64,000 nt of DNA, taken from positions 6,833 through 70,832 of the forward strand of contig JAUZPL010000012.1 of NCBI GenBank assembly GCA_030705955.1, read 5' to 3'. The stretch comes from Bacillota bacterium. GTDB lineage: Bacteria > Bacillota > Bacilli > Bacillales > Cytobacillaceae. A program made the position numbers and the translations under genes. This document shows positions 291-58,725 of this stretch, piece by piece; the stretch's first letter is position 1; each line of letters opens with the position of its first letter. Below the pieces are notes generated by a model. The model made no database searches, had not been told where the DNA came from, and saw nothing but the letters and a program-made list of their open reading frames with translations.

Positions 291-2180
291 TTAGTTGTTT
301 GGTTTAACTAGGAAGTAACCGTTCATTTCCTGGTGGAGAGCAGAACAGAAGTTTGTGCAATAAAGTGGGAATGTACCTGCTTTATCAGCAACAAAATCAA
401 GTGTCTTCGTTTCACCTGGTTGTACTTCCATATTTAAATCGTAATTATTGATGGCAAAACCATGGGTAATGTCTTCATCACGGTCAATATTCGTTAAATG
501 AATTCTGACATGGTCACCTTGGTTAACTTCGATGGTATCTGGACGTTTTGCCTTTGAATCAAAGACAAATCTAGAGCGCATTGCAATACCATAAACATCT
601 ACTGTATTACCATTGCGGACTATTCTTGTATCAGTTGTTTTATAAACGGCATCCTTATTGTTTTTGTCCTCCGGATACACATTAATGGTATGAATCTTAT
701 CCGCTTTAATCATTTGTGCATAGTGTGGTTCTGGGTTGGCAGGAACCGTATCGATAACTCTCATTTTTGGCCCATCCAGATCAATTAATTGCATAGTTTC
801 TGGGTGAGAAGGTCCAACAGATAAGAAGTTATCTTTTGCAAGCTTATTAAGGGAAACGAGCCAATGTCCATCAGGAGAAGCTGTATCACCTTCAGCAGCA
901 GCAGCGTGTCCTGGTGAATATTGAACAGGTACACGGTCAACTACTTCGCCAGTTTTGTAGTTCCATTTCACAATTTCAGAAGAGATAAACATAGTTGTAT
1001 AGGCAAAACCTTTATTATCAAATTGAGTATGAAGTGGTCCAAGAGCGTTTTCTGGATTTACTTCTCTTTCCATAACAGATTTATAGTTTAGAACGGGAAT
1101 TCCATTTCTTTCGCCAGAAAAATCTTTGTCTTTAATAGCTTTAAAAGCTTTTTCAAAAGAGAATACTGTCATTGCTGGTGCTAGTTTACCAGAAGCGATA
1201 AAGTATTTTCCGTCTGGAGTTACGTCAACACCATGTGGAGATTTTGCAACAGGTACTAAATAAATTCCCTGATTTTCCTTTTCAGGGAAAATCATCTTTT
1301 GGCCGTCTACGTTTGTATACTTGCCATCCTTCACTTCTTGGGCAAGCTCTTTCCAGTTGAAAAGAACGATATAGTCACGGTCTGCTTGCGATGCATTAAT
1401 TTCCATTGTCGTTGTTGCTTCTTCGGTGTTATAAGTTGTAATAACACCCCATCCATCAGAGCTTTTCTTACCAGCATCAGATAAATCATAAGACCATGGT
1501 GGAAGAGCTACTTGGTAAGCGATATTTAATTTTTCATTCTTTTTATCAAATGTTAAAGCTGACATTACTCCATAATAATCTTTGCTGTAATTATCAAGTG
1601 ATGCATATTTTTGACCGAGTGGAGTAGCAAATCGAGTTGGTAAGAATAAGTATTCAGTATTTGGAGTTACAAAAGCAGCACAGTGTGGGCCGCTTGTGTT
1701 CGGTACTTTAATGATGTCTTTTGTTGTAAATGTTTTTAAATCCATAACGGCAGCACGGCTGTTTGCTACGTCTGTAGCAAATAAATATTTACCATCATAA
1801 TCCCCATTTGTTTCAGAAAGGGCTGGATGGTGGAAATCCCCCCATGTATAACCGCCAAGCATTTTTTTCGATGCAGCATCATAGCCGTATCCAGTGGCAG
1901 AGTCTGGTGAGAAGATTGGTACAGTACGAATTAAACGCATGGAAGGAACACCGTAAACAAACAATTGTCCAGAGTGCCCACCAGATGCCATTAAATAATA
2001 GTCATCCTTTTTTCCTAGTGGAACATATACTTTTTCAGCATCGCCATTACTAGTAGTTGTAGTAGAATTAGATGCTGCTGTTTTTGTTTTTGAACCTGGA
2101 GAAATATCAGCAAAGATAATGACTGCCACTACCAGGCCAAATACCAAGCCGGAAATAATTGGTATCAATTTCTTTTTCAT
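291..2180 (-). CDS. nosZ: Nitrous-oxide reductase NosZ, Sec-type (clade II/atypical)
   Basis: 629 aa. C-terminal CuA motif CTNFCSALHQEM (C-X3-C-X3-H-X2-M) and DFHHP histidine cluster. N-terminus is a hydrophobic Sec-type signal/anchor with no twin-arginine, followed by a Ser/Thr-rich linker. RBS AAGGGTGGTG. Confidence 0.92.
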   Translation of the reverse strand: MKKKLIPIISGLVFGLVVAVIIFADISPGSKTKTAASNSTTTTSNGDAEKVYVPLGKKDDYYLMASGGHSGQLFVYGVPSMRLIRTVPIFSPDSATGYGYDAASKKMLGGYTWGDFHHPALSETNGDYDGKYLFATDVANSRAAVMDLKTFTTKDIIKVPNTSGPHCAAFVTPNTEYLFLPTRFATPLGQKYASLDNYSKDYYGVMSALTFDKKNEKLNIAYQVALPPWSYDLSDAGKKSSDGWGVITTYNTEEATTTMEINASQADRDYIVLFNWKELAQEVKDGKYTNVDGQKMIFPEKENQGIYLVPVAKSPHGVDVTPDGKYFIASGKLAPAMTVFSFEKAFKAIKDKDFSGERNGIPVLNYKSVMEREVNPENALGPLHTQFDNKGFAYTTMFISSEIVKWNYKTGEVVDRVPVQYSPGHAAAAEGDTASPDGHWLVSLNKLAKDNFLSVGPSHPETMQLIDLDGPKMRVIDTVPANPEPHYAQMIKADKIHTINVYPEDKNNKDAVYKTTDTRIVRNGNTVDVYGIAMRSRFVFDSKAKRPDTIEVNQGDHVRIHLTNIDRDEDITHGFAINNYDLNMEVQPGETKTLDFVADKAGTFPLYCTNFCSALHQEMNGYFLVKPNN

Positions 2181-2197
2181 TTAGTTAACACCACCCT

Positions 2198-2656
2198 TTA
2201 ATTTGCTTGCTTTACTTCAGATGCTTTTTTCAAAAGAGCTAAAACTTGTTTCCGCTGATCATCAGTCAATGGCTTGCTGCCAAGAACGCCTGACATAACA
2301 GCTGAATTTGGTTTAGTTAAAAATTGCTCAATTGGTATACCATGTTTGTTTTGAACCTCATTAAACGCCTGTGATAGGTCAGGTCCAACTTGGCCAGCAT
2401 GAATGCCTAATGCACTTACAGAGTGACATCCTAAGCAACCTCTTTGAGAAAGAATGTTGTTTTGGTCAACCGCTGTAGAAGATGTTTGGGTGCTTCCCGC
2501 ACTAGCTGTAGCTTGAGTTCCCGAACTGGCAGGAGCGGTAGCAGCAGCTTCCTCAGGCGGCGTATCTCCAGGACCTCCCGAAGCAGCATATATTAGATAA
2601 CCAAGACCAACGCCAATAATCACACTCAATACAAAGCTAAGAATTGCCTTGTTCAT
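2198..2656 (-). CDS. Membrane-anchored c-type cytochrome co-transcribed with nosZ (NosC-like electron donor)
   Basis: Single CLGCH haem-c motif, N-terminal TM helix, Ala/Ser/Thr-rich linker. Start moved from 2686 to the ATG at 2656, which sits behind AAAGGAGGGG. Stop is 17 nt before the nosZ start. Confidence 0.8.
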   Translation of the reverse strand: MNKAILSFVLSVIIGVGLGYLIYAASGGPGDTPPEEAAATAPASSGTQATASAGSTQTSSTAVDQNNILSQRGCLGCHSVSALGIHAGQVGPDLSQAFNEVQNKHGIPIEQFLTKPNSAVMSGVLGSKPLTDDQRKQVLALLKKASEVKQAN

Positions 2657-2717
2657 TTTTTCCCCTCCTTTTTGTCTAATGAACAACTACATCCTAATGG
2701 GAATGAATCGTCAAAAG

Positions 2718-4471: not shown

Positions 4472-5233
4472 ATGAACCGTAAAGGTTGTCCCGATGAATA
4501 CCCCATCACATTGATCGTAAATGGTTTTGAAATAGCGGTTTTTCAATTAACAAAGCATGATCTAGAAGATTGGACCTATGGTTATTTGTTTTCCGAAGGA
4601 TTTATTCATTTTGCAGAAGAGATAAGGACCATATATATGAATGAAGAAATGGGGACCATACAGGTTGAATTATGCACAGATTTTGATAGTGAACAATGGT
4701 TTACAAAGAAGAAGCATTATACCGCCGGTTGCGGAAGAGGAGTAACCTTTTTTTCCATGACAGATGTCAAAAGCTTTGACAAAGTTCATTCACTCCAAAC
4801 ATACTCACTTAGTTATTTATTAAAAAAGCGAAGTGAATTTGCTCAGAATTCTCCGTTCTACTTGGAAACTGGCGGAATGCACGGAGCATGTATTGTTGAT
4901 AAGGATGGGACAATTACAGTCCGTGAGGATATTGGCCGCCACAATGCTGTAGATAAGATAATTGGTTATGCATTAAGGAATCATCTCCTGCCAGAGAATC
5001 TTATTTTACTAACAACTGGAAGGGTTTCATATGAAATGTTGTCGAAGGCAGCTAAATTTGGGTTTGCCATTATTGGTTCTAGAACTGCAGCAACTAAGCA
5101 AGCTATCCAACTAGCAAAATACTTAAATATTGAAGTAATTGGCTATTTGCGTGGGAAAATGGCAACCACTTATACCACGTTTGGCAGAGTGACAAACGAT
5201 TTGAATGAAAGCGCTGCCTTGGAAATGCTTTGA
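4472..5233 (+). CDS. fdhD: Formate dehydrogenase accessory sulfurtransferase FdhD
   Basis: 253 aa with GGMHGA, DIGRHNAVDK and the TAGCGRG loop. Strong RBS AAAGGAGGGAAAACA. Confidence 0.85.
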   Translation: MNRKGCPDEYPITLIVNGFEIAVFQLTKHDLEDWTYGYLFSEGFIHFAEEIRTIYMNEEMGTIQVELCTDFDSEQWFTKKKHYTAGCGRGVTFFSMTDVKSFDKVHSLQTYSLSYLLKKRSEFAQNSPFYLETGGMHGACIVDKDGTITVREDIGRHNAVDKIIGYALRNHLLPENLILLTTGRVSYEMLSKAAKFGFAIIGSRTAATKQAIQLAKYLNIEVIGYLRGKMATTYTTFGRVTNDLNESAALEML

Positions 5234-5315: not shown

Positions 5316-8303
5316 ATGGTTGAAATGAACCTAAGCCGCCGGCAATTTTTGAAATTGTCAGGAGCTGCAGCAGCAACCTTAGCAGTGGTTGAGTTAGGCT
5401 TTAATGAAAAGAAAGCTTATGCACAATCAAAAGAATTTAAAATTGCTAAGACAAAAGTTACTCCAACAATTTGCTGTTATTGTGGTGTAGGCTGTGGAAT
5501 TTTAGTCCACACAAATGACAAAACAGTGGTTTATACGGAAGGGGATCCGGATAACCCAATTAATGAAGGAAAGCTATGCAGTAAAGGAACAACAATTAGA
5601 CAGCTTTATACCTCTGAAAAACGTTTAACAAAACCATTATACCGTGCACCAGGAAGCAGTAAGTGGGAAGAGAAAAGTTGGGATTGGATGCTTGATACCA
5701 TTGCCAAACGGACAAAAGAAACCCGTGATGCTTCTTTTAAAATAACTGAAAATGGATTTACGGTTAACAGAACTGAAAAAATTGCCAGCCTTGGTGGTGC
5801 GGCACTTGATAATGAAGAAACCTACCTGCTTGCGAAACTAATGAGAGGGCTTGGCGTTGTTTATCTAGAACACCAGGCACGGATATGACACAGTTCAACG
5901 GTTGCCGGTCTGGCACCTTCATTTGGTCGTGGAGCAATGACAAACCATTGGAATGATTTGCAGCATACCGATTGCGCACTGATAATGGGCGCAAACCCTG
6001 CTGAAAACCATCCAATAAGCTTTAGATGGCTTACAAAAGCAAGGGAAAACGGGGGCAAGATCGTTTCGGTGGACCCACGTTTCACCAGAACATCTTCTCA
6101 GGCAGATGTTTATGCACCTCTCCGTTCAGGTACTGATATCGCGTTCCTTGGCGGAATGATAAATTATACACTTCAAAATAATCTGTTCCATAAAGAATAC
6201 GTTGCGGCCTATACAAATGCTTCTTTTATTGTAAAAGGAGGGTATGACTTCAACGACGGTCTTTTCTCTGGATACAATGCTGAGAAAAGGGCCTACGATA
6301 AAACAAAATGGGCACTTGAAACAACACCAGATGGAAAACCAGTCAAGGATCCAACACTTCAAAACCCGAGATGTGTATTCCAATTAATGAAAAAACATTA
6401 TTCACGGTATGATATAGACTCCGTTATAGCTGTAACAGGAACACCAAAAGAAGATTATCTGAATGTTTGTAAAACCTTCTGTGGTACAGGTGAGGTAGGG
6501 AAATCAGGAACCATCATGTATGCAATGGGAACTACACAGCACACAGTGGGAACACAAAATGTTCGCTCTTATGTCATCCTACAGCTTCTTTTAGGAAACA
6601 TCGGAATCCCTGGCGGTGGGATCAATGCGATGCGTGGAGAATCCAACGTTCAAGGGTCAACAGACTTTGCTTTATTATATGATAACCTGCCTGGATATCT
6701 TGCAGCACCAAAAACATTGGTTCCAGAGCATGCAACACTTGAAGGATATCTGAAGATAGAAACACCAAAAACAGGATATTGGAGCAACAAACCAAAATTT
6801 GTTGTGAGTCTTCTAAAAGCTTGGTATGGAAAAAGTGCAACGAAAGATAATGAATTTGGTTATCAATTCTTGCCAAAGGCAAGTGGTAACTATTCACATA
6901 TCAATCTCTTTAAAGCGATGTATGACGGGAAAATGGATGGTGCATTTCTTTTTGGAACAAATCCAGTTGTTGGCGGACCAAACGCTGGCAAAGAAAAAGA
7001 GGCGCTCAGCAAATTGAAATGGCTAGTGGCCATCGATCTTTGGGAAACAGAAACAGCCTCATTCTGGCAAAAAGAAGCTGGGAACAATCCATCAGATATC
7101 CAGACAGAGGTATTCCTACTTCCTGCAAGTGCATCGTATGAAAAAGAAGGAAGTATTTCGAATAGTTCTCGCTGGATGCAATACCGTTGGAAAGCGATCA
7201 ATTCCAGAGGGGAAGCAAGACCAGACCTTGAGGTTATTCATGAACTCGCACTAAGGCTGAAGAATCTATATGCCAACAGTGCAAATCCAGCAGATAAACC
7301 ATTCCTTGCCCTTGATTGGAACTTCGGTTCAGGTGATGAGGTAGATATCGACCTAGTTGCGAAAGAAATTAATGGCTATGACATCTCTAAAGGAAAATTA
7401 ATGAAAACCTTCGGTGATTTAAAGGACGACGGTACAACTTCTAGCGGTAACTGGATTTATTCAGGGTTCTATCCAGGAGAAGGCATGAACCTATCAAAAC
7501 GCCGTGATAGCAAGGACACTGGTGGAGAAAATTACCTAAACTGGTCCTTTGCTTGGCCAGCTAACCGTCGTATCATTTATAACCGTGCTTCTGCAGACCC
7601 AAGCGGAAAGCCATGGAGCGAGAAAAAAGCAGTTATTCACTGGGATGCGCTTCAGAATAAGTGGGTTGGAAACGATGTACCTGACTTTAAAGCAGTTACA
7701 GCACCAACAGCTCCTGGAGGAACAGGTGCATTCATGATGAACAAAGATGGTGTAGCTCTATTGTTTGCACCAACTTTAAATGATGGTCCGTTCCCAGAGC
7801 ATTATGAACCATTTGAAAGCCCTGTACCAAATCCATTCTCTAGTCAACAGTTGAATCCAGCAGCAGTTGTCATTGAAGGGGATTTCAACAAAAAAGGGGA
7901 TAAGAGCCAATTCCCAATTGTTGCGACAAATTATCGTGTAAGTGAACACTGGCAATCAGGCTCCATGACAAGAAACCAAGAATGGCTTTCTGAACTTGTG
8001 GGTCATATGTTCGTTGAGATTAGTGAGGAATTAGCAGCTGAAAAAGGTATTAAGAACAAAGATCAAATTATTGTTAGTTCAGCCCGTGGTGAAGTCAAAG
8101 CTTATGCAATGGTAACCAAACGCTTTAAGCCATTCACCATCCAAGGGAAGAAAATTCATCAAATTGGGATGCCATGGCACTTTGGCTATAAAGGTTTTGT
8201 GACTGGTGATACAGCGAATCGATTAACACCACATATTGGTGATGCCAACTCATTTATTCCTGAATATAAGGCATTCCTCTGTAACGTAAGGAGGGCTGAC
8301 TAA
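5316..8303 (+). CDS. fdhA: Formate dehydrogenase alpha subunit (FdnG/FdoG-like molybdo/tungstopterin enzyme), Tat-exported, selenocysteine-containing; read through TGA 5886..5888
   Basis: Track ORFs 5316..5888 and 5937..8303 share one frame (621 nt apart). Tat motif SRRQFLK and Fe-S motif CCYCGVGCG. Active site HQARI-U-HSSTVAGLAPSFGRGAMTNHW. Confidence 0.85.
5886..5925 (+). other. Selenocysteine UGA codon plus SECIS hairpin
   Basis: UGA, then 11 nt, then GGUUGCCGGUCUGGCACC (5900..5917). This compares with the E. coli fdhF minihelix GGUUGCAGGUCUGCACC: same spacing, bulged U and GGUC loop. Confidence 0.8.
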
Positions 8304-9130
8304 TGACGGAATATGTTAAATATGTTGATGTAACCAAATGTGATGGCTGTCGTGCTTGTATGGTTGCTTGTAAAAACTGGAATGACCTTCCCGCTGAACA
8401 AACAGAATTTCTAGGCAGTGTGCAGTCCCATAAGAAGACAACTGCTGATACATGGAATGTTTTGCAATACATCGAGCATGACAATGCAAAGGGTAATTTA
8501 GAGTACCTTTTCCGTCATTCAAGCTGCTTCCATTGTACAGATGCTGCATGTGAAAAGGTTTGTCCGGAACATGCAATCAGCTACACAAAATATGGGACCG
8601 TTGTGGTGGATCAAGATAAATGTGTAGGTTGTGGATATTGTGTGAATAACTGTCCATTTGAAATTATTGCGTTAAAAGAATACAAAGACAAAAACGGCAA
8701 AGAGTACAGAAAAGCTCATAAGTGCACGATGTGTACAGATCGTCTTGATGAAGGACTTCAGCCAGCTTGCGTAACAACCTGTCATACAGGGGCTATGGAG
8801 TTTGGAAATAAGACTGACATGCTAAAGAAAGCTGAGCAGCGTGTAAATGAAATTAAAAGCCGTTTTCCAAACGCAAATATTTATAATCCACAAGGAGTGG
8901 GCGGCACGCATACAGTTTATGTATTAGCTGAAAGGCCTTCCGTTTATGGGCTCCCTGAGAATCCAAAAGTGCCAACCTCCGCAGTATTATGGAAGGATTA
9001 CGCTCAGCCAATTGGTAAGATGATGCTTGGTGCAACAACAATGGCTGTTGTAGGTGCTTATATTTCCAACAAAATATTTAATAAGGAAGGAAAGGGACAT
9101 GACGAAGACGGAGGTGGAAGCCATGAGTAA
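8303..9130 (+). CDS. Formate dehydrogenase beta (4Fe-4S ferredoxin-type) subunit with C-terminal TM anchor
   Basis: 275 aa. Several CxxCxxCxxxCP clusters (CDGCRACMVAC, CVGCGYCVNNCP, CTMCTDR). Hydrophobic C-terminal helix. Start overlaps the alpha-subunit stop (TAATG). Confidence 0.85.
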   Translation: MTEYVKYVDVTKCDGCRACMVACKNWNDLPAEQTEFLGSVQSHKKTTADTWNVLQYIEHDNAKGNLEYLFRHSSCFHCTDAACEKVCPEHAISYTKYGTVVVDQDKCVGCGYCVNNCPFEIIALKEYKDKNGKEYRKAHKCTMCTDRLDEGLQPACVTTCHTGAMEFGNKTDMLKKAEQRVNEIKSRFPNANIYNPQGVGGTHTVYVLAERPSVYGLPENPKVPTSAVLWKDYAQPIGKMMLGATTMAVVGAYISNKIFNKEGKGHDEDGGGSHE

Positions 9131-9833
9131 TCAGAAAAAGCCCGTGGTGGAAGTAAGACGTTTTTCGAAGGCATTTGTACTAGCACATGCCGTTAACGCA
9201 ATTTCTTTCTTAGCGTTATATATAACAGCCCTTCCAATGTATACTGACTTTTTTAACTGGCTGTATCCAGTTCTAGGCGGTCCAGCACAAGCTCGCTTAC
9301 TACACAGAATTTTTGCTTGTATATTTGTCACACCTACTATTATCTATTTAATTTTTGATGCAAAAGGATTTTTCTATTGGATGAAGGAGCTCATCACATG
9401 GAAAAAGCGGGATCTCCAATTTTTCTCGGAATTTGTTAAGGATCTCTTTGGTCTGAAATTTAAGCATGTAAAACAAACATTCTTTAATGCAGGAGAAAAA
9501 GTTAACTCTATCCTGCAAATCATTTGTGCAATTTTGATTATTTGTTCAGGGATTACTATGTGGTTTTCACAATACTTCCCAAGAGCAGTAGTCCAATGGG
9601 GGTATTTCTTCCACAATGTTGGATTTGCTCTAGCTATAGCCGTTGTTGTTGGGCATATTTATTTGAGTGTAATTCACAAAAACTCACGACCGGGCTATTC
9701 AGGTGTCGTTACAGGAAAAGTTCCTGCATGGTGGGCAAAAGATCACTATACCGAATGGTATGAGGATGAGGTTAAGAAAGGCAACTTCCCTAAGATACCT
9801 GATCCAAAACATACCAAGCATAAAGGTGCTTAA
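9123..9833 (+). CDS. Formate dehydrogenase gamma (cytochrome b, FdoI/FdnI-like) subunit
   Basis: Four predicted TM helices with conserved His. Start moved to ATG 9123, behind GGAGGTGG and overlapping the beta-subunit stop. Confidence 0.75.
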   Translation: MSNQKKPVVEVRRFSKAFVLAHAVNAISFLALYITALPMYTDFFNWLYPVLGGPAQARLLHRIFACIFVTPTIIYLIFDAKGFFYWMKELITWKKRDLQFFSEFVKDLFGLKFKHVKQTFFNAGEKVNSILQIICAILIICSGITMWFSQYFPRAVVQWGYFFHNVGFALAIAVVVGHIYLSVIHKNSRPGYSGVVTGKVPAWWAKDHYTEWYEDEVKKGNFPKIPDPKHTKHKGA

Positions 9834-9907: not shown

Positions 9908-10717
9908 ATGAAAACATCTGTCGTATCCAAGGAATATCAAAATTTGCAAAAGGAAATTGCAGGGATACAAGAAAAGTGGAAAAATAGACTTAAACCTGAA
10001 TGGATCACAACTAAGCTTGACAAAGCTTCTTTAGAATCAGGTATTCCAGTACTTGCTTTAACCTCTTTTAACGTGAATATTCCACTGTTTTTACAGTGTA
10101 TAGAGGAAATAATAGAATTGTTAGAGAAATATAATGGAAACCTCTCAGATCAGCTATCCAGTTTAAAAAGCGGTTTAAACGATGTAGTAGCAGAGTACTG
10201 GGTTGAGGAGGCACTGTCATTAAATACCTTATATTTTAGCGGCTTTGCCCATGAGAATCATTTGGATGAATGGCTTCCACAATTTATTGCTGAAACTGCA
10301 ATTAGACCATATTTACAGCTTACGGCTGAAATGGTACAAGATCAGGTTCAGTATGGGAAACCGGGTGTAGGCTGTCCAGTTTGTGGTGAGCCTGTTCGTT
10401 TAGCACAGCTTGAAGAAGATGGTAAAAAAATTCTGCATTGTCCAAGATGCCTATGTCATTGGAATGCTAGCAGGTTAACTTGTTCCCATTGTGGAAATAG
10501 TAATCATGAAAAAATTCAATTTTTGACAATTGATGAAGATCCAGCCTCACAAATTCAAGTTTGTGAAGAATGTAAAGGGTATACAAAGATTATTGATACA
10601 AGGCAATACATTACAAAACCAATTGCCTCTTTACTTGATCTTTCCACGATCCATCTAGACTTTATTGCACAAGAAAATGGATATATGGCTATAGGAGAAA
10701 AGAAAGAATCCAATTAA
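9908..10717 (+). CDS. fdhE: FdhE formate dehydrogenase maturation protein
   Basis: 269 aa with four CxxC pairs (CPVCG, CPRC, CSHCG, CEEC) in the C-terminal half. Confidence 0.8.
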   Translation: MKTSVVSKEYQNLQKEIAGIQEKWKNRLKPEWITTKLDKASLESGIPVLALTSFNVNIPLFLQCIEEIIELLEKYNGNLSDQLSSLKSGLNDVVAEYWVEEALSLNTLYFSGFAHENHLDEWLPQFIAETAIRPYLQLTAEMVQDQVQYGKPGVGCPVCGEPVRLAQLEEDGKKILHCPRCLCHWNASRLTCSHCGNSNHEKIQFLTIDEDPASQIQVCEECKGYTKIIDTRQYITKPIASLLDLSTIHLDFIAQENGYMAIGEKKESN

Positions 10718-10734: not shown

Positions 10735-11346
10735 ATGGTTGCAGGGGCTATTATTTTATCAGGTGGAAAATCAAGTAGAATGGGTACAAATAAGGCCCTT
10801 CTTAAAATAAATGAAATAACCAATATTGAACGAGTTAAAAATCAACTAATGGAATCCTTTCAAGATATCATTCTTGTAACCAATGAACCGAATGAATATG
10901 AGTTTTTAAATATAAGGATGACTTCCGATCAGTATCCCGGAAAGGGACCACTTGCGGGTCTTCATGCAGGTTTAGTAGATTCAGATCATGATGTAAATTT
11001 GGTTGTTGCCTGTGACATGCCGTTTGTCTCTAACGAGTTAGCTTGCTATTTTGTAGAGGCAATTGGTGATTATGATGCTGTTATTCCTATTATTAATGGA
11101 AAACAGCATCCTTTGTTTTCTGTTTTTAAAAAGCATGTTATAGATCAAATAGAGGATAGCTTAAAAAGTGACCGTCTTCGAATGAAACATCTGCTTGAGC
11201 AGATTCATGTTCGTTTTATGACGGAAAAGGACTTGGAGAAGGTTAGGTTAGAGAATCTAGAAAGAATCTTTTTTAATATGAATAACCCCACAGAATATGA
11301 AGATGCAAAAAAATGGGCGAAAGAAGACAATCAAAAAGGGGTGTAA
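10735..11346 (+). CDS. mobA: Molybdenum cofactor guanylyltransferase MobA
   Basis: 203 aa with N-terminal LSGGKSSRMGTNKALL motif. Confidence 0.85.
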   Translation: MVAGAIILSGGKSSRMGTNKALLKINEITNIERVKNQLMESFQDIILVTNEPNEYEFLNIRMTSDQYPGKGPLAGLHAGLVDSDHDVNLVVACDMPFVSNELACYFVEAIGDYDAVIPIINGKQHPLFSVFKKHVIDQIEDSLKSDRLRMKHLLEQIHVRFMTEKDLEKVRLENLERIFFNMNNPTEYEDAKKWAKEDNQKGV

Positions 11347-11350
11347 ATTC

Positions 11351-12580
11351 ATGAAGTTTTTTAAAGTAAAGACAGTTGAAGAAACATTTGCATTAATCGA
11401 TGAATGTGTACCTGTAATAGAAAAAACGGAAATTCGAGCACTTGAAGAGGCTCTTCATTATATTTTAGCAGAACCTATTATAGCAAAAGAAAATGTTCCG
11501 GGATTTGACCGTTCCACTGTAGATGGTTATGCGGTTATGGCTGAGGATACATATGGTTCATCAGAGTCAATGCCAGGCTTTTTATCGGTAGTCGGGGAAG
11601 TAAAAATGGGAGAAGAAGCAACACATTCTATTGGACATGGTGAGGCCATTTATGTTCCAACAGGGGGAATGCTCCCACCAGGCAGTAACAGTGTGATCAT
11701 GATTGAGCATTGCGAAGAAATTGCCGGCCTTTTAAATACATATAAGCAAATTGCACCTGGAGAAAATATTATTCGAGCTGGAGATGACATCAAAGAAGGA
11801 GAAGTCCTCCTTCAAAAAGGGGCGAAGCTTAGACCACAGGAATTAGGAGCCATTGCTGCTCTGGGAATTTCCCATGTAACAGTATATAGAAGAATAAAAG
11901 TAGCATACCTTTCATCAGGAGATGAAATTGTCCCATTTCAAACAGAAAGGCTCGAGATTGGGCAAATAAGGGATATCAACCATCTAACCATAATTGGGCT
12001 GGCACAGGAATGGGGTCATGATGTCGAATATGGCGGAATTGTTAAAGACAATGTTGAAGTCTTTTTGCAAAAAGCACGTGAACTCTATGAAAACGCAGAT
12101 TGTTTAATACTTTCTGGAGGAAGTTCAGTTGGTGCTAAAGACTATACCACAGATGTCATTGAATCACTTGGAAAGCCCGGTGTATTTGTTCATGGTATTT
12201 CAGTTAAGCCGGGAAAGCCCACTATTTTGGCTATTGCAGACGGAAAGCCTGTTATTGGGCTGCCAGGGCACCCAGCATCAGCCATGATTATTTTCCGTCT
12301 ATTCGGACAAAGAATTTTACAAAAGCTAAAAGGGGAACGATTAGAGAAAAAGCCTGATCGTATTTATGCACGAATAACAAAAAATATCCCTTCCTCACCA
12401 GGTAGATCTGACTATATCAGAGTGAAATTAGTTGATCGGGAAGGTGAATGGTGGGCAGAGCCTATCATTGGAAAGTCCGGCCTTATTACAACATTGGTTA
12501 AAAGCGATGGCATCGTTGAAATCATGTCTGAAAAAGAGGGAATTGCACAGGGAGAATATGTTCCTGTTATTTTAACGTAA
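11351..12580 (+). CDS. moeA: Molybdopterin molybdenumtransferase MoeA
   Basis: About 409 aa. Start moved to ATG 11351 behind AAAGGGGTG. MoeA motifs FDRSTVDGYAV, GGSSVGAKDY, PGKP, LPGHPAS. Confidence 0.85.
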   Translation: MKFFKVKTVEETFALIDECVPVIEKTEIRALEEALHYILAEPIIAKENVPGFDRSTVDGYAVMAEDTYGSSESMPGFLSVVGEVKMGEEATHSIGHGEAIYVPTGGMLPPGSNSVIMIEHCEEIAGLLNTYKQIAPGENIIRAGDDIKEGEVLLQKGAKLRPQELGAIAALGISHVTVYRRIKVAYLSSGDEIVPFQTERLEIGQIRDINHLTIIGLAQEWGHDVEYGGIVKDNVEVFLQKARELYENADCLILSGGSSVGAKDYTTDVIESLGKPGVFVHGISVKPGKPTILAIADGKPVIGLPGHPASAMIIFRLFGQRILQKLKGERLEKKPDRIYARITKNIPSSPGRSDYIRVKLVDREGEWWAEPIIGKSGLITTLVKSDGIVEIMSEKEGIAQGEYVPVILT

Positions 12581-12618
12581 CTTAAAGTAATTCTTACAAT
12601 TGACTAGAGAAGAAATGT

Positions 12619-12727
12619 CTAGCTCCAGCGCCTAGCCCTTCGAGGTCTTAAGCCGTCCCCCTCCGGAGGTCAGGACCGTCCTGTGGGTGCCGTCTTAAGC
12701 TTGTCGGGGCTGACCAAGGCGCTTGCA
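12619..12727. repeat. GC-rich (~65% by hand count) imperfect long palindrome / structured element between the two moeA genes
   Basis: AGCGCC..AGCCC (12627..12638) pairs with GGGCT..GGCGCT (12707..12723). Inner CTTAAG arms and CAGGAccgTCCTG. No ORF. Confidence 0.6.
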
Positions 12728-12753
12728 CTTTTCTGATTAGGGGGGACCTTTAA

Positions 12754-14688
12754 ATGGATCAAAAACGATATAAACGAAAAATTTATTTACAAGACAAACC
12801 CCGGGAGGAGGCTAAAAGTGAATTACTGGCTGCCTTCCAATTGCCCATTGAAAAAGAAATTATAAAATCTACAGATGCATTAGGCCGTTCCACGGCAGAA
12901 CCGATTTTTGCCCATGCCTCTATGCCTCACTATCATGCTTCGGCGATGGATGGAATAGCTGTTTTAGCTGAAGAGACTTATTTTGCACATGAACATCATC
13001 CGCTCCATTTAAGGCTGGGTGAACAATTTGTTTTTGTGGATACAGGTAATGCGATTCCTTCACCATTTAATGCTGTCATTATGATTGAGGATGTAAACAT
13101 GATTGATGAAGAAACCATTGAAATTATTGAACCCGCAACACCTTGGCAGCATATTCGGCCAATTGGAGAAGATATTGTCCAGGAGGAGATGCTTTTTCCT
13201 CAGGGTCATATTTTAAGGCCAGCTGATTTAGGAGTTTTGCTTGCATCAAAACTCACGATGGTACCAGTCATTAAAAAACCGCTTGTAACCATTATTCCAA
13301 CTGGAAATGAGCTTGTAAATGCAGATTCTGCACTAATGTCCGGCCGAATTATCGAATTCAATGGGACCGTTTTTGCAAACTTTGTTAGCCAATGGGGCGG
13401 TGAACCCATTCTTCAGGACATCGTAAGAGATGAGCCCGAGAAAATCAAAGAAGCCTTATTAAAGGCAGCAGAGGTTTCAGATATTGTCGTTATAAATGCA
13501 GGTTCATCAGCTGGCTCAAAAGACTATACTGTCCATATCATAAATGAAATTGGAACTGTTTTTACTCATGGGGTCGCCGCAAGGCCTGGGAAGCCCGTCA
13601 TCCTAGGGAAAATAAACGGAAAAATAGTGGTAGGTGTGCCCGGATATCCTGTTTCCGCTTATCTTGCCCTAGAATGGTTTGTGAGACCGCTTATTTGTAA
13701 GTATTTAAATATACCAGAACCAAAAAGGCAAACACTTCCTGTTAAGCTAGGTCGCCGAATTGTTTCATCCATGGGCGCAGAGGATTTTGTCAGAATGAAT
13801 ATAGGCTATGTGAATGGACAGTATGTCGCCAATCCCTTAACAAGAGCTGCTGGTGTGACCATGTCCTATGTAAGAGCAGATGGAATGCTTATTGTTCCTA
13901 CTGATCAGATTGGATATGAACAGGGTGACATAGTGGAGGTGGAGCTGTTAAAGCCACTCCATGAAATTCAACATGCCATTGTATTTTGTGGAAGCCATGA
14001 TTTAACGATAGACCTCATTTCCGCTAACATTAAGAAAGAGCGCCATGATATGAAGGTAGTTTCTTCTCATGTAGGCAGTATGGCAGGAATTATGGCGATA
14101 AGAAAAGGCGAAGCACATGTAGCGGGCATTCATTTGCTTGATACCGATACAATGCAATATAATGTTCCGTATGTAAGTAAATTATTATCCGGTCTTGATG
14201 TCGTATTATATCCATTTCTAAAGCGGAAGCAAGGATGGATGGTCGCTAAGGGAAATCCATTAGAAATTAAAAGTGTGGAGGACCTTGTAAAACGCAACGC
14301 TCATTATATTAATCGTCAAAAAGGTGCCGGTACGAGAATTTTATTTGACTTATTACTAAAAGAAGCGGGATTGTCTCCAGAACAAATAACAGGCTATGGC
14401 CGTGAAATGTTCTCCCACCTTGCTGTTGCTGCAGAAGTAAAAGGAAATGAAAATGCAGTTGGTCTCGGGATTTACCCTGCAGCAAGGTCCATGGATTTAT
14501 CGTTTGTGCCTGTTGCAGACGAAGAGTATGATTTAATTATGACAAGGTCCTTTTTTGAAAGCGAAAAAGGTGTACTACTTCGAAGCGTGATTGAATCCCC
14601 TTCCTTTAAACTAGAGGTAGAAAAAATTGGCGGTTATGAGGTAGTAGCAGGAACAATGTCAAAAACATTGCAGCTGGTGACGGAGTAA
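12754..14688 (+). CDS. MoeA-like molybdopterin transferase fused to a C-terminal periplasmic-binding-protein-like (putative oxyanion-binding) domain
   Basis: 644 aa. N-terminal ~400 aa has MoeA motifs (SAMDGIAV, AGSSAGSKDY, RPGKP, VPGYPVS). C-terminal ~235 aa resembles PBP type-2 / LysR-effector fold domains. Confidence 0.75.
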   Translation: MDQKRYKRKIYLQDKPREEAKSELLAAFQLPIEKEIIKSTDALGRSTAEPIFAHASMPHYHASAMDGIAVLAEETYFAHEHHPLHLRLGEQFVFVDTGNAIPSPFNAVIMIEDVNMIDEETIEIIEPATPWQHIRPIGEDIVQEEMLFPQGHILRPADLGVLLASKLTMVPVIKKPLVTIIPTGNELVNADSALMSGRIIEFNGTVFANFVSQWGGEPILQDIVRDEPEKIKEALLKAAEVSDIVVINAGSSAGSKDYTVHIINEIGTVFTHGVAARPGKPVILGKINGKIVVGVPGYPVSAYLALEWFVRPLICKYLNIPEPKRQTLPVKLGRRIVSSMGAEDFVRMNIGYVNGQYVANPLTRAAGVTMSYVRADGMLIVPTDQIGYEQGDIVEVELLKPLHEIQHAIVFCGSHDLTIDLISANIKKERHDMKVVSSHVGSMAGIMAIRKGEAHVAGIHLLDTDTMQYNVPYVSKLLSGLDVVLYPFLKRKQGWMVAKGNPLEIKSVEDLVKRNAHYINRQKGAGTRILFDLLLKEAGLSPEQITGYGREMFSHLAVAAEVKGNENAVGLGIYPAARSMDLSFVPVADEEYDLIMTRSFFESEKGVLLRSVIESPSFKLEVEKIGGYEVVAGTMSKTLQLVTE

Positions 14689-14702
14689 AAGAGGTGCATT
14701 TG

Positions 14703-15167
14703 ATGAATTATGAGATTTCAAAAGAAGCCATTGATATCCAGGCTATTATTAATAAAGTGGTCCGGCGTGACGTAGGTGCCATAACGACCTTTATTGGAAC
14801 GGTTCGTGAATTAACAAAAGGGAAAAAAACGTTGTTTCTTATATATGAGGCCTATGAATCGATGGCTGTAAAAAAGCTCGAACAAATTGGCAAGGAAATA
14901 GAAGAACGTTGGCAAGGCTCCGTGGTTGCGATAACCCACCGTGTAGGCAGGCTGGAAATCACAGATGTAGCGGTGGTCATTGCGGTATCAACTCCCCATC
15001 GTGCAGATGCTTATGAAGCCAATCGATATGCAATTGAACGTATAAAGGAAATTGTTCCGATTTGGAAGAAAGAGCATTGGGAGGATGGAGAGTCCTGGAT
15101 GGGTAATCAATTAGAAACAGTGGCATATCCAAAAGGACGGCCAGAGGAGAAGGATCTAAATGAATAA
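14703..15167 (+). CDS. moaE: Molybdopterin synthase catalytic subunit MoaE
   Basis: About 154 aa. Start moved to ATG 14703 (AAGAGGTG 6 nt upstream). FIGTVRE and PIWKKE motifs. Confidence 0.85.
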   Translation: MNYEISKEAIDIQAIINKVVRRDVGAITTFIGTVRELTKGKKTLFLIYEAYESMAVKKLEQIGKEIEERWQGSVVAITHRVGRLEITDVAVVIAVSTPHRADAYEANRYAIERIKEIVPIWKKEHWEDGESWMGNQLETVAYPKGRPEEKDLNE

Positions 15168-15393
15168 AGTGATGTTTTTTGCCCATTTACGGGATAAAGT
15201 TGGGAAAGAATGTTTATTAATAGAGGCATCAGGAAAAACAGTTGCTGAATTAAAGGCAGAAATAACAAAAGAATATAGCTTGGACAAAATGGATACCGTT
15301 ATGACGGCTATTAATGAGGAATTTGCAGGAAATGAAGAAATAATCCAGGATGAGGATGTTATTGCCTTTATACCGCCGGTAAGCGGTGGATAA
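15160..15393 (+). CDS. moaD: Molybdopterin synthase sulfur-carrier subunit MoaD
   Basis: 77 aa ending in the PPVSGG di-glycine. Overlaps the moaE stop. Confidence 0.85.
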   Translation: MNKVMFFAHLRDKVGKECLLIEASGKTVAELKAEITKEYSLDKMDTVMTAINEEFAGNEEIIQDEDVIAFIPPVSGG

Positions 15394-15409
15394 GGGGGGA
15401 AACCATACA

Positions 15410-16429
15410 ATGAAGGATCGATATTCACGGCAAACTTTATTTCCTGGCATAGGAAAAAAAGGGCAGGAAAAAATTAGTCAAAAACACGTGCTCATTATTG
15501 GAGCAGGCGCCCTTGGATCCGGAAATGCTGAAGTATTGACAAGAGCAGGTGCAGGGAAAATAACCTTAATTGACAGGGATTATGTTGAAGAAAGTAATCT
15601 TCAGCGCCAGCAGCTTTATACGGAAGAGGATGTATGGGAAAAACTTCCGAAAGCTGCTGCAGCTAAAAAACGGCTGAATGCAATCAATTCCGATGTTGAA
15701 ATTATTTCAATTATAGGTGATGCGACACCAGAAGTATTAGAGGATCAAATAAAGGGTATAGATGTCATCATTGATGCAACAGATAATTTTGAAACAAGAA
15801 TGGCCATAAATGATATCTCACAAAAATATAATGTTCCATGGATTTACGGAGCATGTGTTGGCAGTTTTGGGATGAGCTTCACCATTATCCCTGGAAAAAC
15901 TCCATGTTTAAACTGCCTTCTAAGGACGATACCTATGCAAGGCATGACATGTGATACAGGAGGAATTATTTCTCCAGCCGTTCAAATGGTCATCGCCCAT
16001 CAAACCGCAGAAGCTTTAAAAATACTGGCAGAGGATTATGAATCGCTAAGAAACTCCTTTGTCAGCTTTGATTTATGGCGCAATCAATACACAAGTATGA
16101 AAATGTCAAAGGCTAAATTTTCAGGCTGTCTATCCTGTGGGGACAATAGAACCTACCCTTACCTTGATCGCGATAGCATGACCAAAACAATGCTGTTATG
16201 TGGCAGAGATACAGTACAAATTCGTCCACCTGTTACAGGAGAAATTTCACTAGAACAGCTTGCAGGGCAGCTTTCCACCCTCGGGTATAAGGTAAAAGGG
16301 AACCCCTATTTATTATCCGTTGAAATGGAAAAAGAACGTATGGTTATTTTTAAGGATGGGAGAGCTCTCATTCACGGAACAAAAGACTTAACACACGCAA
16401 AGTCTATTTATCAAAGGATATTAGGATAA
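15410..16429 (+). CDS. moeB: MoeB/ThiF-family adenylyltransferase (MoaD activation)
   Basis: YSRQ start motif and Rossmann IIGAGALGS. Start moved to ATG 15410 behind AAGGGGGGA. CxxC pairs (CLNC, CLSC). Confidence 0.8.
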   Translation: MKDRYSRQTLFPGIGKKGQEKISQKHVLIIGAGALGSGNAEVLTRAGAGKITLIDRDYVEESNLQRQQLYTEEDVWEKLPKAAAAKKRLNAINSDVEIISIIGDATPEVLEDQIKGIDVIIDATDNFETRMAINDISQKYNVPWIYGACVGSFGMSFTIIPGKTPCLNCLLRTIPMQGMTCDTGGIISPAVQMVIAHQTAEALKILAEDYESLRNSFVSFDLWRNQYTSMKMSKAKFSGCLSCGDNRTYPYLDRDSMTKTMLLCGRDTVQIRPPVTGEISLEQLAGQLSTLGYKVKGNPYLLSVEMEKERMVIFKDGRALIHGTKDLTHAKSIYQRILG

Positions 16430-22254: not shown

Positions 22255-23553
22255 ATGGTATATTCGGCAGAAAAACTGAGTGAAGAAAAAGTGTTCAAGG
22301 ATCCTGTACATCGCTATGTTCATGTAAGGGATAAAGTTATTTGGGATCTAATTGGAACAAAGGAATTTCAGCGTCTTAGAAGAATTAAACAGCTGGGTAC
22401 GACCTTCTTAACCTTTCACGGTGCTGAACATAGCCGTTTTAACCACTCTCTTGGGGTATATGAAATTGTTCGCCGTATTATCGATGATGTATTTGCCGGT
22501 AGACCGGAATGGAACGATTCTGACCGTCTCCTTACATTATGTTCAGCCCTTCTTCATGATTTGGGACATGGCCCTTTTTCACATTCCTTTGAAAAGGTGT
22601 TTCAATTGGACCATGAAGATTTTACACGTGCCATTATCTTAGGAGATACCGAGGTAAATAAAGTACTAACAAAGGTTTCCCCAGACTTTCCAGCAAAGGT
22701 AGCTGAAGTCATTGCAAAAACCTCAGAAAAAAAGTTGGTTGTCAGTTTAATTTCAAGCCAAATTGATGCAGATCGAATGGATTATTTGCAGAGGGATGCG
22801 TATTTTACTGGTGTAAGCTATGGACAATTTGATATGGAACGAATTCTAAGGGTGATGCGCCCGAGAGAAGATCAAGTCGTTATTAAACAAAGTGGAATGC
22901 ACGCGGTTGAAGATTATATTATGAGCCGCTACCAAATGTACTGGCAAGTATATTTTCACCCTGTTTCCCGCAGCGCGGAGGTTATTCTTTCAAGAATTCT
23001 CCACCGTGCAAAGGATTTATTTAATGAAGGGTACTTATTTAAATATCCTCCCCATCATTTCTTTTCATTTTTTAAAGAAAAGGTGGATGTAGAGGATTAC
23101 TTAAAATTAGATGAAGCTGTAATAGTATACTATTTTCAAATTTGGCAGGAAGAATCAGATTTTATTCTCAGTGATCTTTGTAGTAGGTTTATAAATCGAA
23201 ATTTGTTTAAGTTTGTGGAATTTGATCCTGCAAAAGAATATAAAAAACTTGGTGAATTAACTTCGTTATTTAAAAAAGCAGGAATAGATCCGGAGTATTA
23301 TCTTGTTGTGGATTCCTCATCTGATTTACCGTATGACTTTTATCGTCCGGGGGAAGAGGAGGAGCGACTTCCTATTCACCTCCTGATGAAAAATGGAGAG
23401 TTACGTGAGCTTTCACGAGAATCTGAAATTGTTGATGCTATTTCTGGGAAAAGAAGAACAGACCATAAGCTTTATTTCCCGGCAGACCTGATTCACGATG
23501 AGACAAACAAGAAAAATATGAAAAAACAAATTAAAACCCTTTTAGAGATATAA
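22255..23553 (+). CDS. ywfO: HD-domain phosphohydrolase (YwfO-like)
   Basis: 432 aa with HSLGV...LLHDLGHGPFSH...DADRMDYLQRD motifs. Confidence 0.85.
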   Translation: MVYSAEKLSEEKVFKDPVHRYVHVRDKVIWDLIGTKEFQRLRRIKQLGTTFLTFHGAEHSRFNHSLGVYEIVRRIIDDVFAGRPEWNDSDRLLTLCSALLHDLGHGPFSHSFEKVFQLDHEDFTRAIILGDTEVNKVLTKVSPDFPAKVAEVIAKTSEKKLVVSLISSQIDADRMDYLQRDAYFTGVSYGQFDMERILRVMRPREDQVVIKQSGMHAVEDYIMSRYQMYWQVYFHPVSRSAEVILSRILHRAKDLFNEGYLFKYPPHHFFSFFKEKVDVEDYLKLDEAVIVYYFQIWQEESDFILSDLCSRFINRNLFKFVEFDPAKEYKKLGELTSLFKKAGIDPEYYLVVDSSSDLPYDFYRPGEEEERLPIHLLMKNGELRELSRESEIVDAISGKRRTDHKLYFPADLIHDETNKKNMKKQIKTLLEI

Positions 23554-55883: not shown

Positions 55884-55971
55884 GTGTACAGTGTGTTTTT
55901 AGTACTGCCAAGCTTGTAGCTGGTAGATAACTCTGTTTCGAAAGACTCAGGGCGAAAAGGAGCTGAAAAGA

Positions 55972-57630: not shown

Positions 57631-58725
57631 TTAGCGTTTTGAAGCATTTGGAACGAATAAAGGTTTACCATATTTGGTTTTTCCATATTTACCAATTAGC
57701 TTTTGTCCTTCTGGGCTAACTAGCCAATCAATGAATGTTTTACTTACATTAGGTTTATCTGTACCTACTACTTCAATAATTCCGTAAGGATTTAAAAGTT
57801 CCTTTTGACCTTTTAATAAACAAACTAATGAAGTCTTATTAGTTAGGAAAGTAGCTTCATCTGAAAGGGTATAGCCACCTAATTCATCCGCCATACGTAA
57901 AGTATCTCCCATGCCAAGGCCAGCTTTTTTATACCAGTCACCGCTTGGAGTAATGTTCGCATCGCTCCAGAGAGTAAGTTCTTTAGCATTTGTACCGGAT
58001 TTATCTGCTCTAGAAATAAAGATTGATTTGGTATCGGCAATTTTCTTAAAGGCATCTTGAACTGTTTTTGAATCCTTAATATGGGCTGGATCATCTTTTG
58101 GTCCAGCTATTAAAAATTGATTGTACATTAAATTCCAAGCATATGTGCCACGACCTTCTGCCACGAATTTATCTTCGCTTTTTCGATCATGAACCATTAA
58201 AACATCAGCGTCACCTTGTTCCCCCATTTTAATGGCTTGCCCAGTTCCAACTGCGACAACCTTTACATCAACATCATATTTTGCTTCAAATACTGGGATA
58301 ATGGCATCTAATAAACCAGAATCTTGAGTACTTGTTGTTGTTGCAAGGATAAATGAGCTTTCTAGCTTAGGTTTTACGGCAACAGGCTTTGATGCAACAG
58401 GCTTTGTAGTAACAGGTTTTGAAGCAGTTGTATTGGCAACTACTGCCTTTGTATAATTAGCGTAAACATATCCATAATGGCTATTCCAAATAATTTTATA
58501 CCATGTTTTATTTTTAGTTGTTGAAACAACCTGTAATTCCTTCCCCTTTTTAGCAACTCCTATTTTCTTGTATTTGGCACCGGCGTTTGAATGTACACAA
58601 ACATCTTTTGTTGCGGTTACTTTCTTTATGACTTTTGGAGTTGAAGCTGCAAATGAAGGTGCTACAAAAGAGAAAACTAAAAATAATGCAGTTAAAACCG
58701 AAAATACTAAGTTACCCCTTTTCAT
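57631..58725 (-). CDS. tupA: Secreted SH3b-domain protein fused to a TupA-like tungstate/molybdate ABC substrate-binding domain
   Basis: 364 aa. Signal peptide ending SFAAS, SH3-like segment (VHSNAGAKYKKIGVAKKGKELQVV...WYKIIWNSHYGYVYANY), KPV-repeat linker, then ATTTSTQDSGLLDAIIPVFE and a PBP fold. Confidence 0.65.
   Translation of the reverse strand: MKRGNLVFSVLTALFLVFSFVAPSFAASTPKVIKKVTATKDVCVHSNAGAKYKKIGVAKKGKELQVVSTTKNKTWYKIIWNSHYGYVYANYTKAVVANTTASKPVTTKPVASKPVAVKPKLESSFILATTTSTQDSGLLDAIIPVFEAKYDVDVKVVAVGTGQAIKMGEQGDADVLMVHDRKSEDKFVAEGRGTYAWNLMYNQFLIAGPKDDPAHIKDSKTVQDAFKKIADTKSIFISRADKSGTNAKELTLWSDANITPSGDWYKKAGLGMGDTLRMADELGGYTLSDEATFLTNKTSLVCLLKGQKELLNPYGIIEVVGTDKPNVSKTFIDWLVSPEGQKLIGKYGKTKYGKPLFVPNASKR

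Follow-up and report, generated by a model that had tools for sequence, protein, structure and literature searches.

The window analysed here, a stretch of 64,000 nucleotides from a Bacillota bacterium (contig JAUZPL010000012.1 of assembly GCA_030705955.1), carries near its left end a formate dehydrogenase gene, fdnG, whose reading frame is interrupted by a single in-frame TGA. Comparison of this locus with its relatives leads us to conclude that positions 5316..8303 of the forward strand are very probably one gene, coding for the catalytic subunit of a membrane-bound enzyme of the formate dehydrogenase-N (FDH-N) type (FdnGHI), a protein that would be exported by the twin-arginine (Tat) route and would contain selenocysteine at the position of the TGA. 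Several lines of evidence support this directly, namely the reading frame, the family to which the protein belongs, the position of the UGA in the selenocysteine column of solved structures, a match to a bacterial selenocysteine insertion sequence (SECIS), the conservation of both codon and hairpin, and the pattern of selection. The gene lies in an operon together with maturation genes (fdhD and fdhE) and cofactor genes. The features of the gene itself are as follows.

5316..8303, forward strand: fdnG, catalytic alpha subunit of the FDH-N type, 995 amino acids, predicted selenocysteine at residue 191 (TIGR01553)
5316..5420, forward strand: twin-arginine (Tat) export signal MVEMNLSRRQFLKLSGAAAATLAVVELGFNEKKAYA, with an SRRQFLK motif in the translation
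5886..5888, forward strand: putative UGA selenocysteine codon, residue 191, aligned to the selenocysteine of 1H0H and 8CM4
5883..5941, forward strand: bacterial SECIS of the fdnG type (Rfam RF01989, SECIS_3)
5900..5917, forward strand: apical minihelix GGUUGCCGGUCUGGCACC, presumed SelB-binding part, with a bulged U at 5902 and a loop around GUC at 5908-5910

Reading frame and protein family

In translation, 5316..8303 is a single frame of 995 codons in which the TGA at 5886..5888 is the sole internal stop; the ATG at 5316 is preceded by an AAGGAG-type ribosome-binding site and the frame ends with the TAA at 8301..8303. A first-pass annotation of the sequence had claimed that the open reading frames (ORFs) 5316..5888 and 5937..8303 lie in one frame and are parted by one TGA, and the translation bears this out; they share a frame because their offset of 621 nt is 207 x 3. 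The flanking residues also read as it had given them, HQARI-*-HSSTVAGLAPSFGRGAMTNHW. Across the 64 kb, on both strands, 5886 is the unique site at which one TGA is all that separates two open stretches, each longer than 120 codons.

The joined 995-residue product matches the NCBIfam family TIGR01553 (formate dehydrogenase-N alpha) with 1286.9 bits against a cutoff of 814.2, and the match spans residues 6-992, corresponding to profile positions 2-1008 of 1009. Full-length alignments with solved structures score 1044 bits for 1H0H, 1022 bits for D. vulgaris FdhA (8CM4 and others), which is named 'selenocysteine-containing' there, and 970.6 bits for 1KQF. The TGA had been assigned to the column occupied by selenocysteine or cysteine in this family, and in the alignments with 1H0H and 8CM4 it does fall on the selenocysteine (printed X) of the block EHQARIxHS. 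The corresponding block of the window, HQARI-UGA-HS, matches NQARV-U-HG of Escherichia coli, with the metal-ligand position followed by histidine in both. The translation also contains a [4Fe-4S] motif of the form Cx2Cx3C...C (CCYCGVGCG...LCSKG), and cleavage of the Tat signal may occur after AYA. In a syntenic JGI contig (L001) the N-terminal fragment of fdnG has a weak PF10518 TAT_signal match together with PF04879.

That automated pipelines would split such a gene had been foreseen, and they do: more than 100 of the best 120 database homologues are fragments of about 787 residues beginning MTNHW, and the JGI gene calls on L001 divide fdnG into proteins of 190 and 789 residues. The close homologues recovered in the protein search, more than 100 of these fragments of about 787 residues, are 68-83% identical to the window protein and come from Neobacillus, Mesobacillus and Bacillus species. 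The practical consequence is a correction of the annotation, in which the 190-residue and 788-residue calls are joined into one predicted selenoprotein with selenocysteine at residue 191, and the organism is recorded as a probable user of selenocysteine with a selenium-dependent respiratory formate dehydrogenase.

The hairpin downstream of the TGA

The Rfam model SECIS_3 matches 5883..5941 over its full length (model positions 1-59) with 64.2 bits against a gathering score of 63 (E = 1e-12). Scanning of E. coli K-12 assigns the models, SECIS_3 to the fdnG element and SECIS_2 (RF01988) to the fdhF element. SECIS_3 scores 84.3 bits on E. coli fdnG and 63.2 bits on three relatives, and SECIS_2 gives 27.3 bits on the window, with a threshold of 70, compared to 87.1 bits on E. 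coli fdhF itself.

Read from the UGA, the window is UGA-CACAGUUCAAC-GGUUGCCGGUCUGGCACC, E. coli fdnG is UGA-CACGGACCAAC-GGUAGCAAGUCUUGCUCC and E. coli fdhF is UGA-CACGGCCCAUC-GGUUGCAGGUCUGCACC; an 11-nt spacer, two G-C pairs, a bulged U and a GUC-containing loop are common to all three. In the DNA the spacer CACAGTTCAAC occupies 5889..5899 and GGTTGCCGGTCTGGCACC occupies 5900..5917, in keeping with the 11-nt spacing that had been reported, and the E. coli fdhF minihelix, as quoted there, is accurate (UGA, 11 nt, then GGUUGCAGGUCUGCACC). The 18-mer GGTTGCCGGTCTGGCACC occurs once in the window with up to three mismatches allowed, where 0.02 occurrences are expected by chance.

The first-pass annotation had likened the hairpin to that of fdhF, and as regards the spacing, the bulged U and the GUC loop the likeness holds, but the type is that of fdnG/fdoG, as seen from the scores of 64.2 bits for SECIS_3 and 27.3 bits for SECIS_2. 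The fdhF element shares with the window GGUUGC...GCACC arms and GGUC in the loop, whereas the apex of the window is one nucleotide longer (18 versus 17 nt) and the flanks differ. Compared to E. coli fdnG, three pairs of the apex are exchanged yet remain paired (A-U to U-A, A-U to C-G, and A-U to G-U). The hairpin is better filed as fdnG-type than as fdhF-type, in agreement with the orthology of the protein.

Conservation of codon and hairpin among the Bacillaceae

A scan of species representatives, with one genome per species, provided 80 Bacillaceae loci from Neobacillus, Mesobacillus, Cytobacillus, Robertmurraya, Peribacillus, Heyndrickxia and relatives, the best of which are 84% identical to the window (Neobacillus novalis and others). 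Codons were counted in the 77 loci containing the site, with the JGI contig L001 counted apart. The codon at the selenocysteine position of fdnG is TGA in 76 of the 77 and TGC in one, the metagenome-assembled genome (MAG) L065; L001 also has TGA. Among the carriers of this TGA are Neobacillus drentensis JC05 (L017, NZ_CP091110.1) and Neobacillus sp. OS1-33 (L025, NZ_CP133262.1). The impression of the first-pass annotation that selenocysteine is uncommon in Bacillaceae holds for B. subtilis, in which selenocysteine is not encoded and the enzymes ForCE and FdhED do without it (PMC10221552), a circumstance that explains the impression, but it fails for this clade: a predicted selenocysteine form of FdnG is the rule in the group of Neobacillus, Mesobacillus, Cytobacillus, Robertmurraya and Peribacillus.

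Three patterns emerge from the comparison of these genes. First, the 20-nt hairpin apex ACGGTTGCCGGTCTGGCACC is without variation in all 78 TGA sequences. Secondly, this invariance extends to synonymous sites. Over 239 four-fold degenerate codon columns of fdnG with a conserved amino acid, the mean third-position entropy is 1.46 bits, and zero entropy is reached in just five, codons 195-199 (T-V-A-G-L), the very codons that make up the hairpin apex (78 sequences). In a set of 40 distinct sequences, one of them E. coli fdnG, pairing of the apex helix is complete (100%), and at two of its pairs both sides have changed. Thirdly, between the window and its relatives the 190-codon N-terminal and 804-codon C-terminal parts of fdnG each have a ratio of nonsynonymous to synonymous change (dN/dS) of 0.04-0.12, with synonymous sites near saturation (pS 0.54-0.76), a pattern indicating strong purifying selection on both halves.

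Two of the related loci deserve comment in their own right. The copy in Mesobacillus boroniphilus JCM 21738 (L062, NZ_BAUW01000015.1) has a frame that stops about 50 codons past the TGA and is the sole broken copy among 79; the cause is either a frameshift or an error of the draft assembly, confined to that one genome. The fdnG locus of 'Paenibacillus sp. BSR1-1' (L007, NZ_JAQMWQ010000011.1) shares 83% identity with the window and clusters among the Neobacillus loci, so its genus label may be wrong.

Cysteine variants as a natural control

A set of homologues has cysteine in place of the predicted selenocysteine, and serves as a natural control for replacement of the one by the other. These are L065 (Bacillota bacterium OH_PBlB_115, 9950), P0001-P0006, P0104 and P0117, all of which read HQARICHS. 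In L065 and all six Bacillaceae-like sequences P0001-P0006 the segment that reads STVAGL in the selenocysteine forms is STVPGL. The former SECIS apex of L065 has acquired six substitutions, the hairpin no longer folds, and SECIS_3 finds no match in this locus in the same scan that included E. coli fdnG and the relatives. The cysteine-type proteins (e.g. Robertmurraya siralis P0003 and L065) are full-length members of the same family, 67-69% identical to the window, and differ from it in having TGC and cysteine for UGA and selenocysteine, STVPGL for STVAGL, and no SECIS. Taken with this control, the comparative data are a clear, textbook-like example of how an RNA structure restricts synonymous change within a coding region.

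Points against the reading and alternative explanations

A number of observations weigh against the interpretation of 5316..8303 as a selenoprotein gene of this kind, and they concern the hairpin, the decoding machinery and the neighbouring subunits. With regard to the hairpin, the margin of SECIS_3 over its threshold is just 1.2 bits, and the Mesobacillus selenatarsenatis locus (L029) has no SECIS_3 match at the gathering score in the same scan. The lower stem is weak, being 79% paired in the 40 distinct sequences, and its columns 10 and 46 are unpaired in 39 of the 40, with a non-standard A10/C46 in the window. The folding energy is no better than that of shuffled sequence (45 nt, -11.3 kcal/mol, z = -0.46), and because it is not significant the case for the hairpin is carried by the covariance model and by comparative conservation.

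With regard to decoding, an NCBIfam scan of the ten suitably sized ORFs of the window finds no selA, selB or selD. Searches by tblastn with E. coli SelA, SelB and SelD (E <= 1e-3) give no match in the window, nor within 10 kb of fdn at 81 related loci, and the same null result was obtained there with SelA, SelB, SelD, YedE and YedF of Enterococcus gilvus and Ligilactobacillus salivarius. ARAGORN finds no tRNA gene in the window, nor in 60 related loci. Since none of the sel genes are present in the window or in the flanks of the 81 loci, they are not linked to fdn in this clade. SelA, SelB, SelD and tRNA-Sec would instead be encoded elsewhere in the genome, a presence that we infer because selection acts on both codon and hairpin.

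A search of a plasmid collection for SelA and SelB returned Proteobacteria, Clostridia and Lactobacillales (the last with proline-reductase-linked clusters), and no Bacillaceae. Two of the plasmids, E. gilvus pCR1A (L084) and L. salivarius pMP1046A (L087), are megaplasmids with a complete selD-yedF-selB-selA cluster beside proline reductase genes, representing a plasmid-borne selenocysteine trait in lactic acid bacteria.

With regard to the neighbouring genes, those beside fdnG that correspond to the beta and gamma subunits belong to the right families and stand in the right fdnG-fdnH-fdnI order, with scores below the equivalog cutoffs (234.8 bits for fdnH-like with TIGR01582, cutoff 334.7; 90.3 bits for fdnI-like with TIGR01583, cutoff 115.85), and the fdhE-like gene scores 55.9 bits with TIGR01562, well under the cutoff of 187.65.

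Three alternatives have to be weighed against this background. The one that survives best, although we consider it improbable, is that the UGA is read through as something other than selenocysteine, either cysteine carried on tRNA-Sec or tryptophan or cysteine inserted by near-cognate suppression, on the assumption that selenium is scarce or that the sel genes have been partly lost in this species. It would fit with the lack of sel genes in the window and in the flanks of the 81 loci, with the concentration of selenocysteine-to-cysteine conversions in the FdhA family (PMC1794560), and with the existence of cysteine forms in related Bacillaceae. Those lineages that have abandoned selenocysteine (L065 and P0001-P0006), however, have switched to TGC and lost the hairpin, whereas the window keeps both codon and hairpin intact, without difference from 77 other sequences.

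A second possibility is that two separate polypeptides are made without readthrough, a 190-residue Fe-S domain and a 788-residue Mo-binding part starting at the ATG at 5937. This ATG lies 48 nt past the TGA and has a GGAG just ahead of it, but the GGAG ends merely 2 nt before the ATG, and both are part of a universally conserved coding block, GRGAM, that is present in the uninterrupted cysteine forms too. The 16 residues between the TGA and the ATG would be lost, including the metal-ligand position and the adjoining histidine, the C-terminal piece would have no Tat signal, and the synonymous invariance of codons 195-199 is explained by the SECIS and not by a restart of translation; we regard this explanation as very unlikely.

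Equally hard to credit is the third, that fdnG is a pseudogene here, its TGA being a nonsense mutation or an error of sequencing. In its favour, gene callers make two genes of it and the sel genes are missing from the regions searched. Against it, 76 of 77 independent genomes and a metagenome contig carry this TGA too, synonymous sites of the neighbouring hairpin are conserved, strong purifying selection acts on both halves, and the 995 codons contain no further stop or frameshift; nonsense mutation, sequencing error and decay cannot account for the combined pattern of codon, hairpin, synonymous sites, cysteine control and selection.

A proposed mechanism

The interpretation as a selenocysteine-containing FdnG suggests a mechanism for which the well-studied E. 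coli FDH-N system (PMC13188914, PMC1794560) is the model, and from which the machinery, selenium content, metal and physiology given here are extrapolated. The apex hairpin at 5900..5917, starting 11 nt downstream, would tether SelB together with GTP and selenocysteinyl-tRNA (Sec-tRNA(Sec)) at the UGA at 5886, so that selenocysteine would be inserted as residue 191. Sec191 would then be a ligand of the molybdenum or tungsten bis-molybdopterin guanine dinucleotide (bis-MGD) cofactor, and His192 would lie next to it. Folded FdnG would be carried across the membrane by its Tat signal and there, with the FdnH-like and FdnI-like subunits, may deliver the electrons of formate to the quinone pool.

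Comparison with known systems

The closest well-described counterpart is E. coli FdnGHI (PDB 1KQF; fdnG b1474, Sec196), which shares with the window the TIGR01553 family, the Tat signal, the QAR-x-U-H block, a SECIS whose 18-nt apex, with its bulged U and GUC loop, starts 11 nt past the UGA, and the order fdnG-fdnH-fdnI. The window differs from it in its Gram-positive host, in its SECIS_3 score (64 versus 84 bits), in beta and gamma subunits below the equivalog cutoffs, and in an operon that, unlike E. coli fdnGHI, also includes fdhD, fdhE and the complete complement of cofactor genes. The best-scoring solved structures are those of the Desulfovibrio gigas tungsten enzyme (1H0H) and D. vulgaris FdhAB (6SDR, 8CM4), which have the HQARIxHS block in common with the window. 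These Desulfovibrio enzymes are soluble periplasmic alpha-beta dimers containing tungsten, whereas the window locus encodes a predicted membrane cytochrome b subunit.

Nearer relatives are the FdnG orthologues of Neobacillus, Mesobacillus and Cytobacillus, which are 66-84% identical to the window and have the same TGA, the identical 20-nt apex and the same operon. The window adds a further species next to these, with a best match of 84% and no functional difference found. One of them, P0041 of Mesobacillus selenatarsenatis SF-1, is annotated as 'formate dehydrogenase O alpha subunit / selenocysteine-containing'. The predicted selenocysteine FdnG is accordingly already known in kind, being a further orthologue of an arrangement that is identical in dozens of Bacillaceae species; Rfam has a curated family for the fdnG-type SECIS, and at least one Bacillaceae orthologue already bears the selenocysteine label. 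Among bacterial selenoproteins FdhA is the most widespread (PMC1794560, PMC13326102), and selenoproteins of the Bacillales were counted in 2006 (PMC1794560, Table 2). We found no paper on selenocysteine in Neobacillus or Mesobacillus. The finding is thus an ordinary one, which leaves existing knowledge unchanged apart from the annotation correction and the example of synonymous constraint imposed by a SECIS.

Operon and gene neighbourhood

The operon and its surroundings are largely shared with the related loci, the fdn block being conserved in about 77 of the 81. The genes flanking fdnG in the operon are the following.

4472..5233, forward strand: fdhD, sulfurtransferase maturing formate dehydrogenase (TIGR00129, 168 bits, cutoff 140.9); in 77 of 81 related loci
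8303..9130, forward strand: fdnH-like iron-sulfur beta subunit (best match TIGR01582); in 81 of 81 loci
9123..9833, forward strand: fdnI-like cytochrome b gamma subunit (TIGR01583); start inferred, longest ORF from 9054
9908..10717, forward strand: fdhE-like accessory protein (TIGR01562, C-terminal half only); L001 counterpart PF24860 FdhE_C
10735..16429, forward strand: Mo/W cofactor genes mobA, moeA, moeA-fusion, moaE, moaD and moeB; conserved in 74-77 of 81 loci

The L001 counterpart of the fdnI-like gene encodes 237 residues and matches PF01292. Among the cofactor genes, mobA and both moeA genes are named from NCBIfam matches, and moaE, moaD and moeB from synteny with L001 (Pfam labels). 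The second MoeA paralogue (12754..14688, forward strand) follows directly after the standard moeA and is fused to a periplasmic-binding-protein-like domain (PRK14498, 702 bits); its counterpart on L001 matches PF12727, and the moeA pair is conserved in 77 of the 81 loci.

About 3 kb upstream of the fdn operon, on the reverse strand, are a nitrous-oxide-reductase-like gene (291..2180), which resembles clade-II nosZ and has a C-terminal cupredoxin motif in its translation, and a small cytochrome-c-like ORF (2198..2686). The L001 counterpart of the former matches PF18764 nos_propeller, and of the 81 related loci 35 have a NosZ homologue no more than 10 kb from fdnG. Because of this adjacency, here and in those 35 loci, fdn and nos might be thought of as a functional module, and we speculate, with considerable doubt, that soil Gram-positives of the Neobacillus type might use the selenocysteine FDH-N together with nos in a selenium-dependent, formate-driven respiration of N2O. 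Separately, and just as tentatively, the invariance of the 20-nt apex across at least 78 species raises the idea of an unusually strict recognition of RNA by SelB in this clade.

Three further features lie at a greater distance. A 364-residue protein (57631..58725, reverse strand) has an N-terminal extension of about 120 residues, and its C-terminal 240 residues match tungstate-binding TupA with 192.8 bits (cutoff 400); it may be relevant to the choice between tungsten and molybdenum in the formate dehydrogenase. A 432-residue ORF (22255..23553, forward strand) has no NCBIfam match at E <= 1e-10. Downstream of rho, an Rfam L31-Firmicutes ribosomal-protein leader is found at 55931..55962 on the forward strand (36.8 bits, threshold 33.3).

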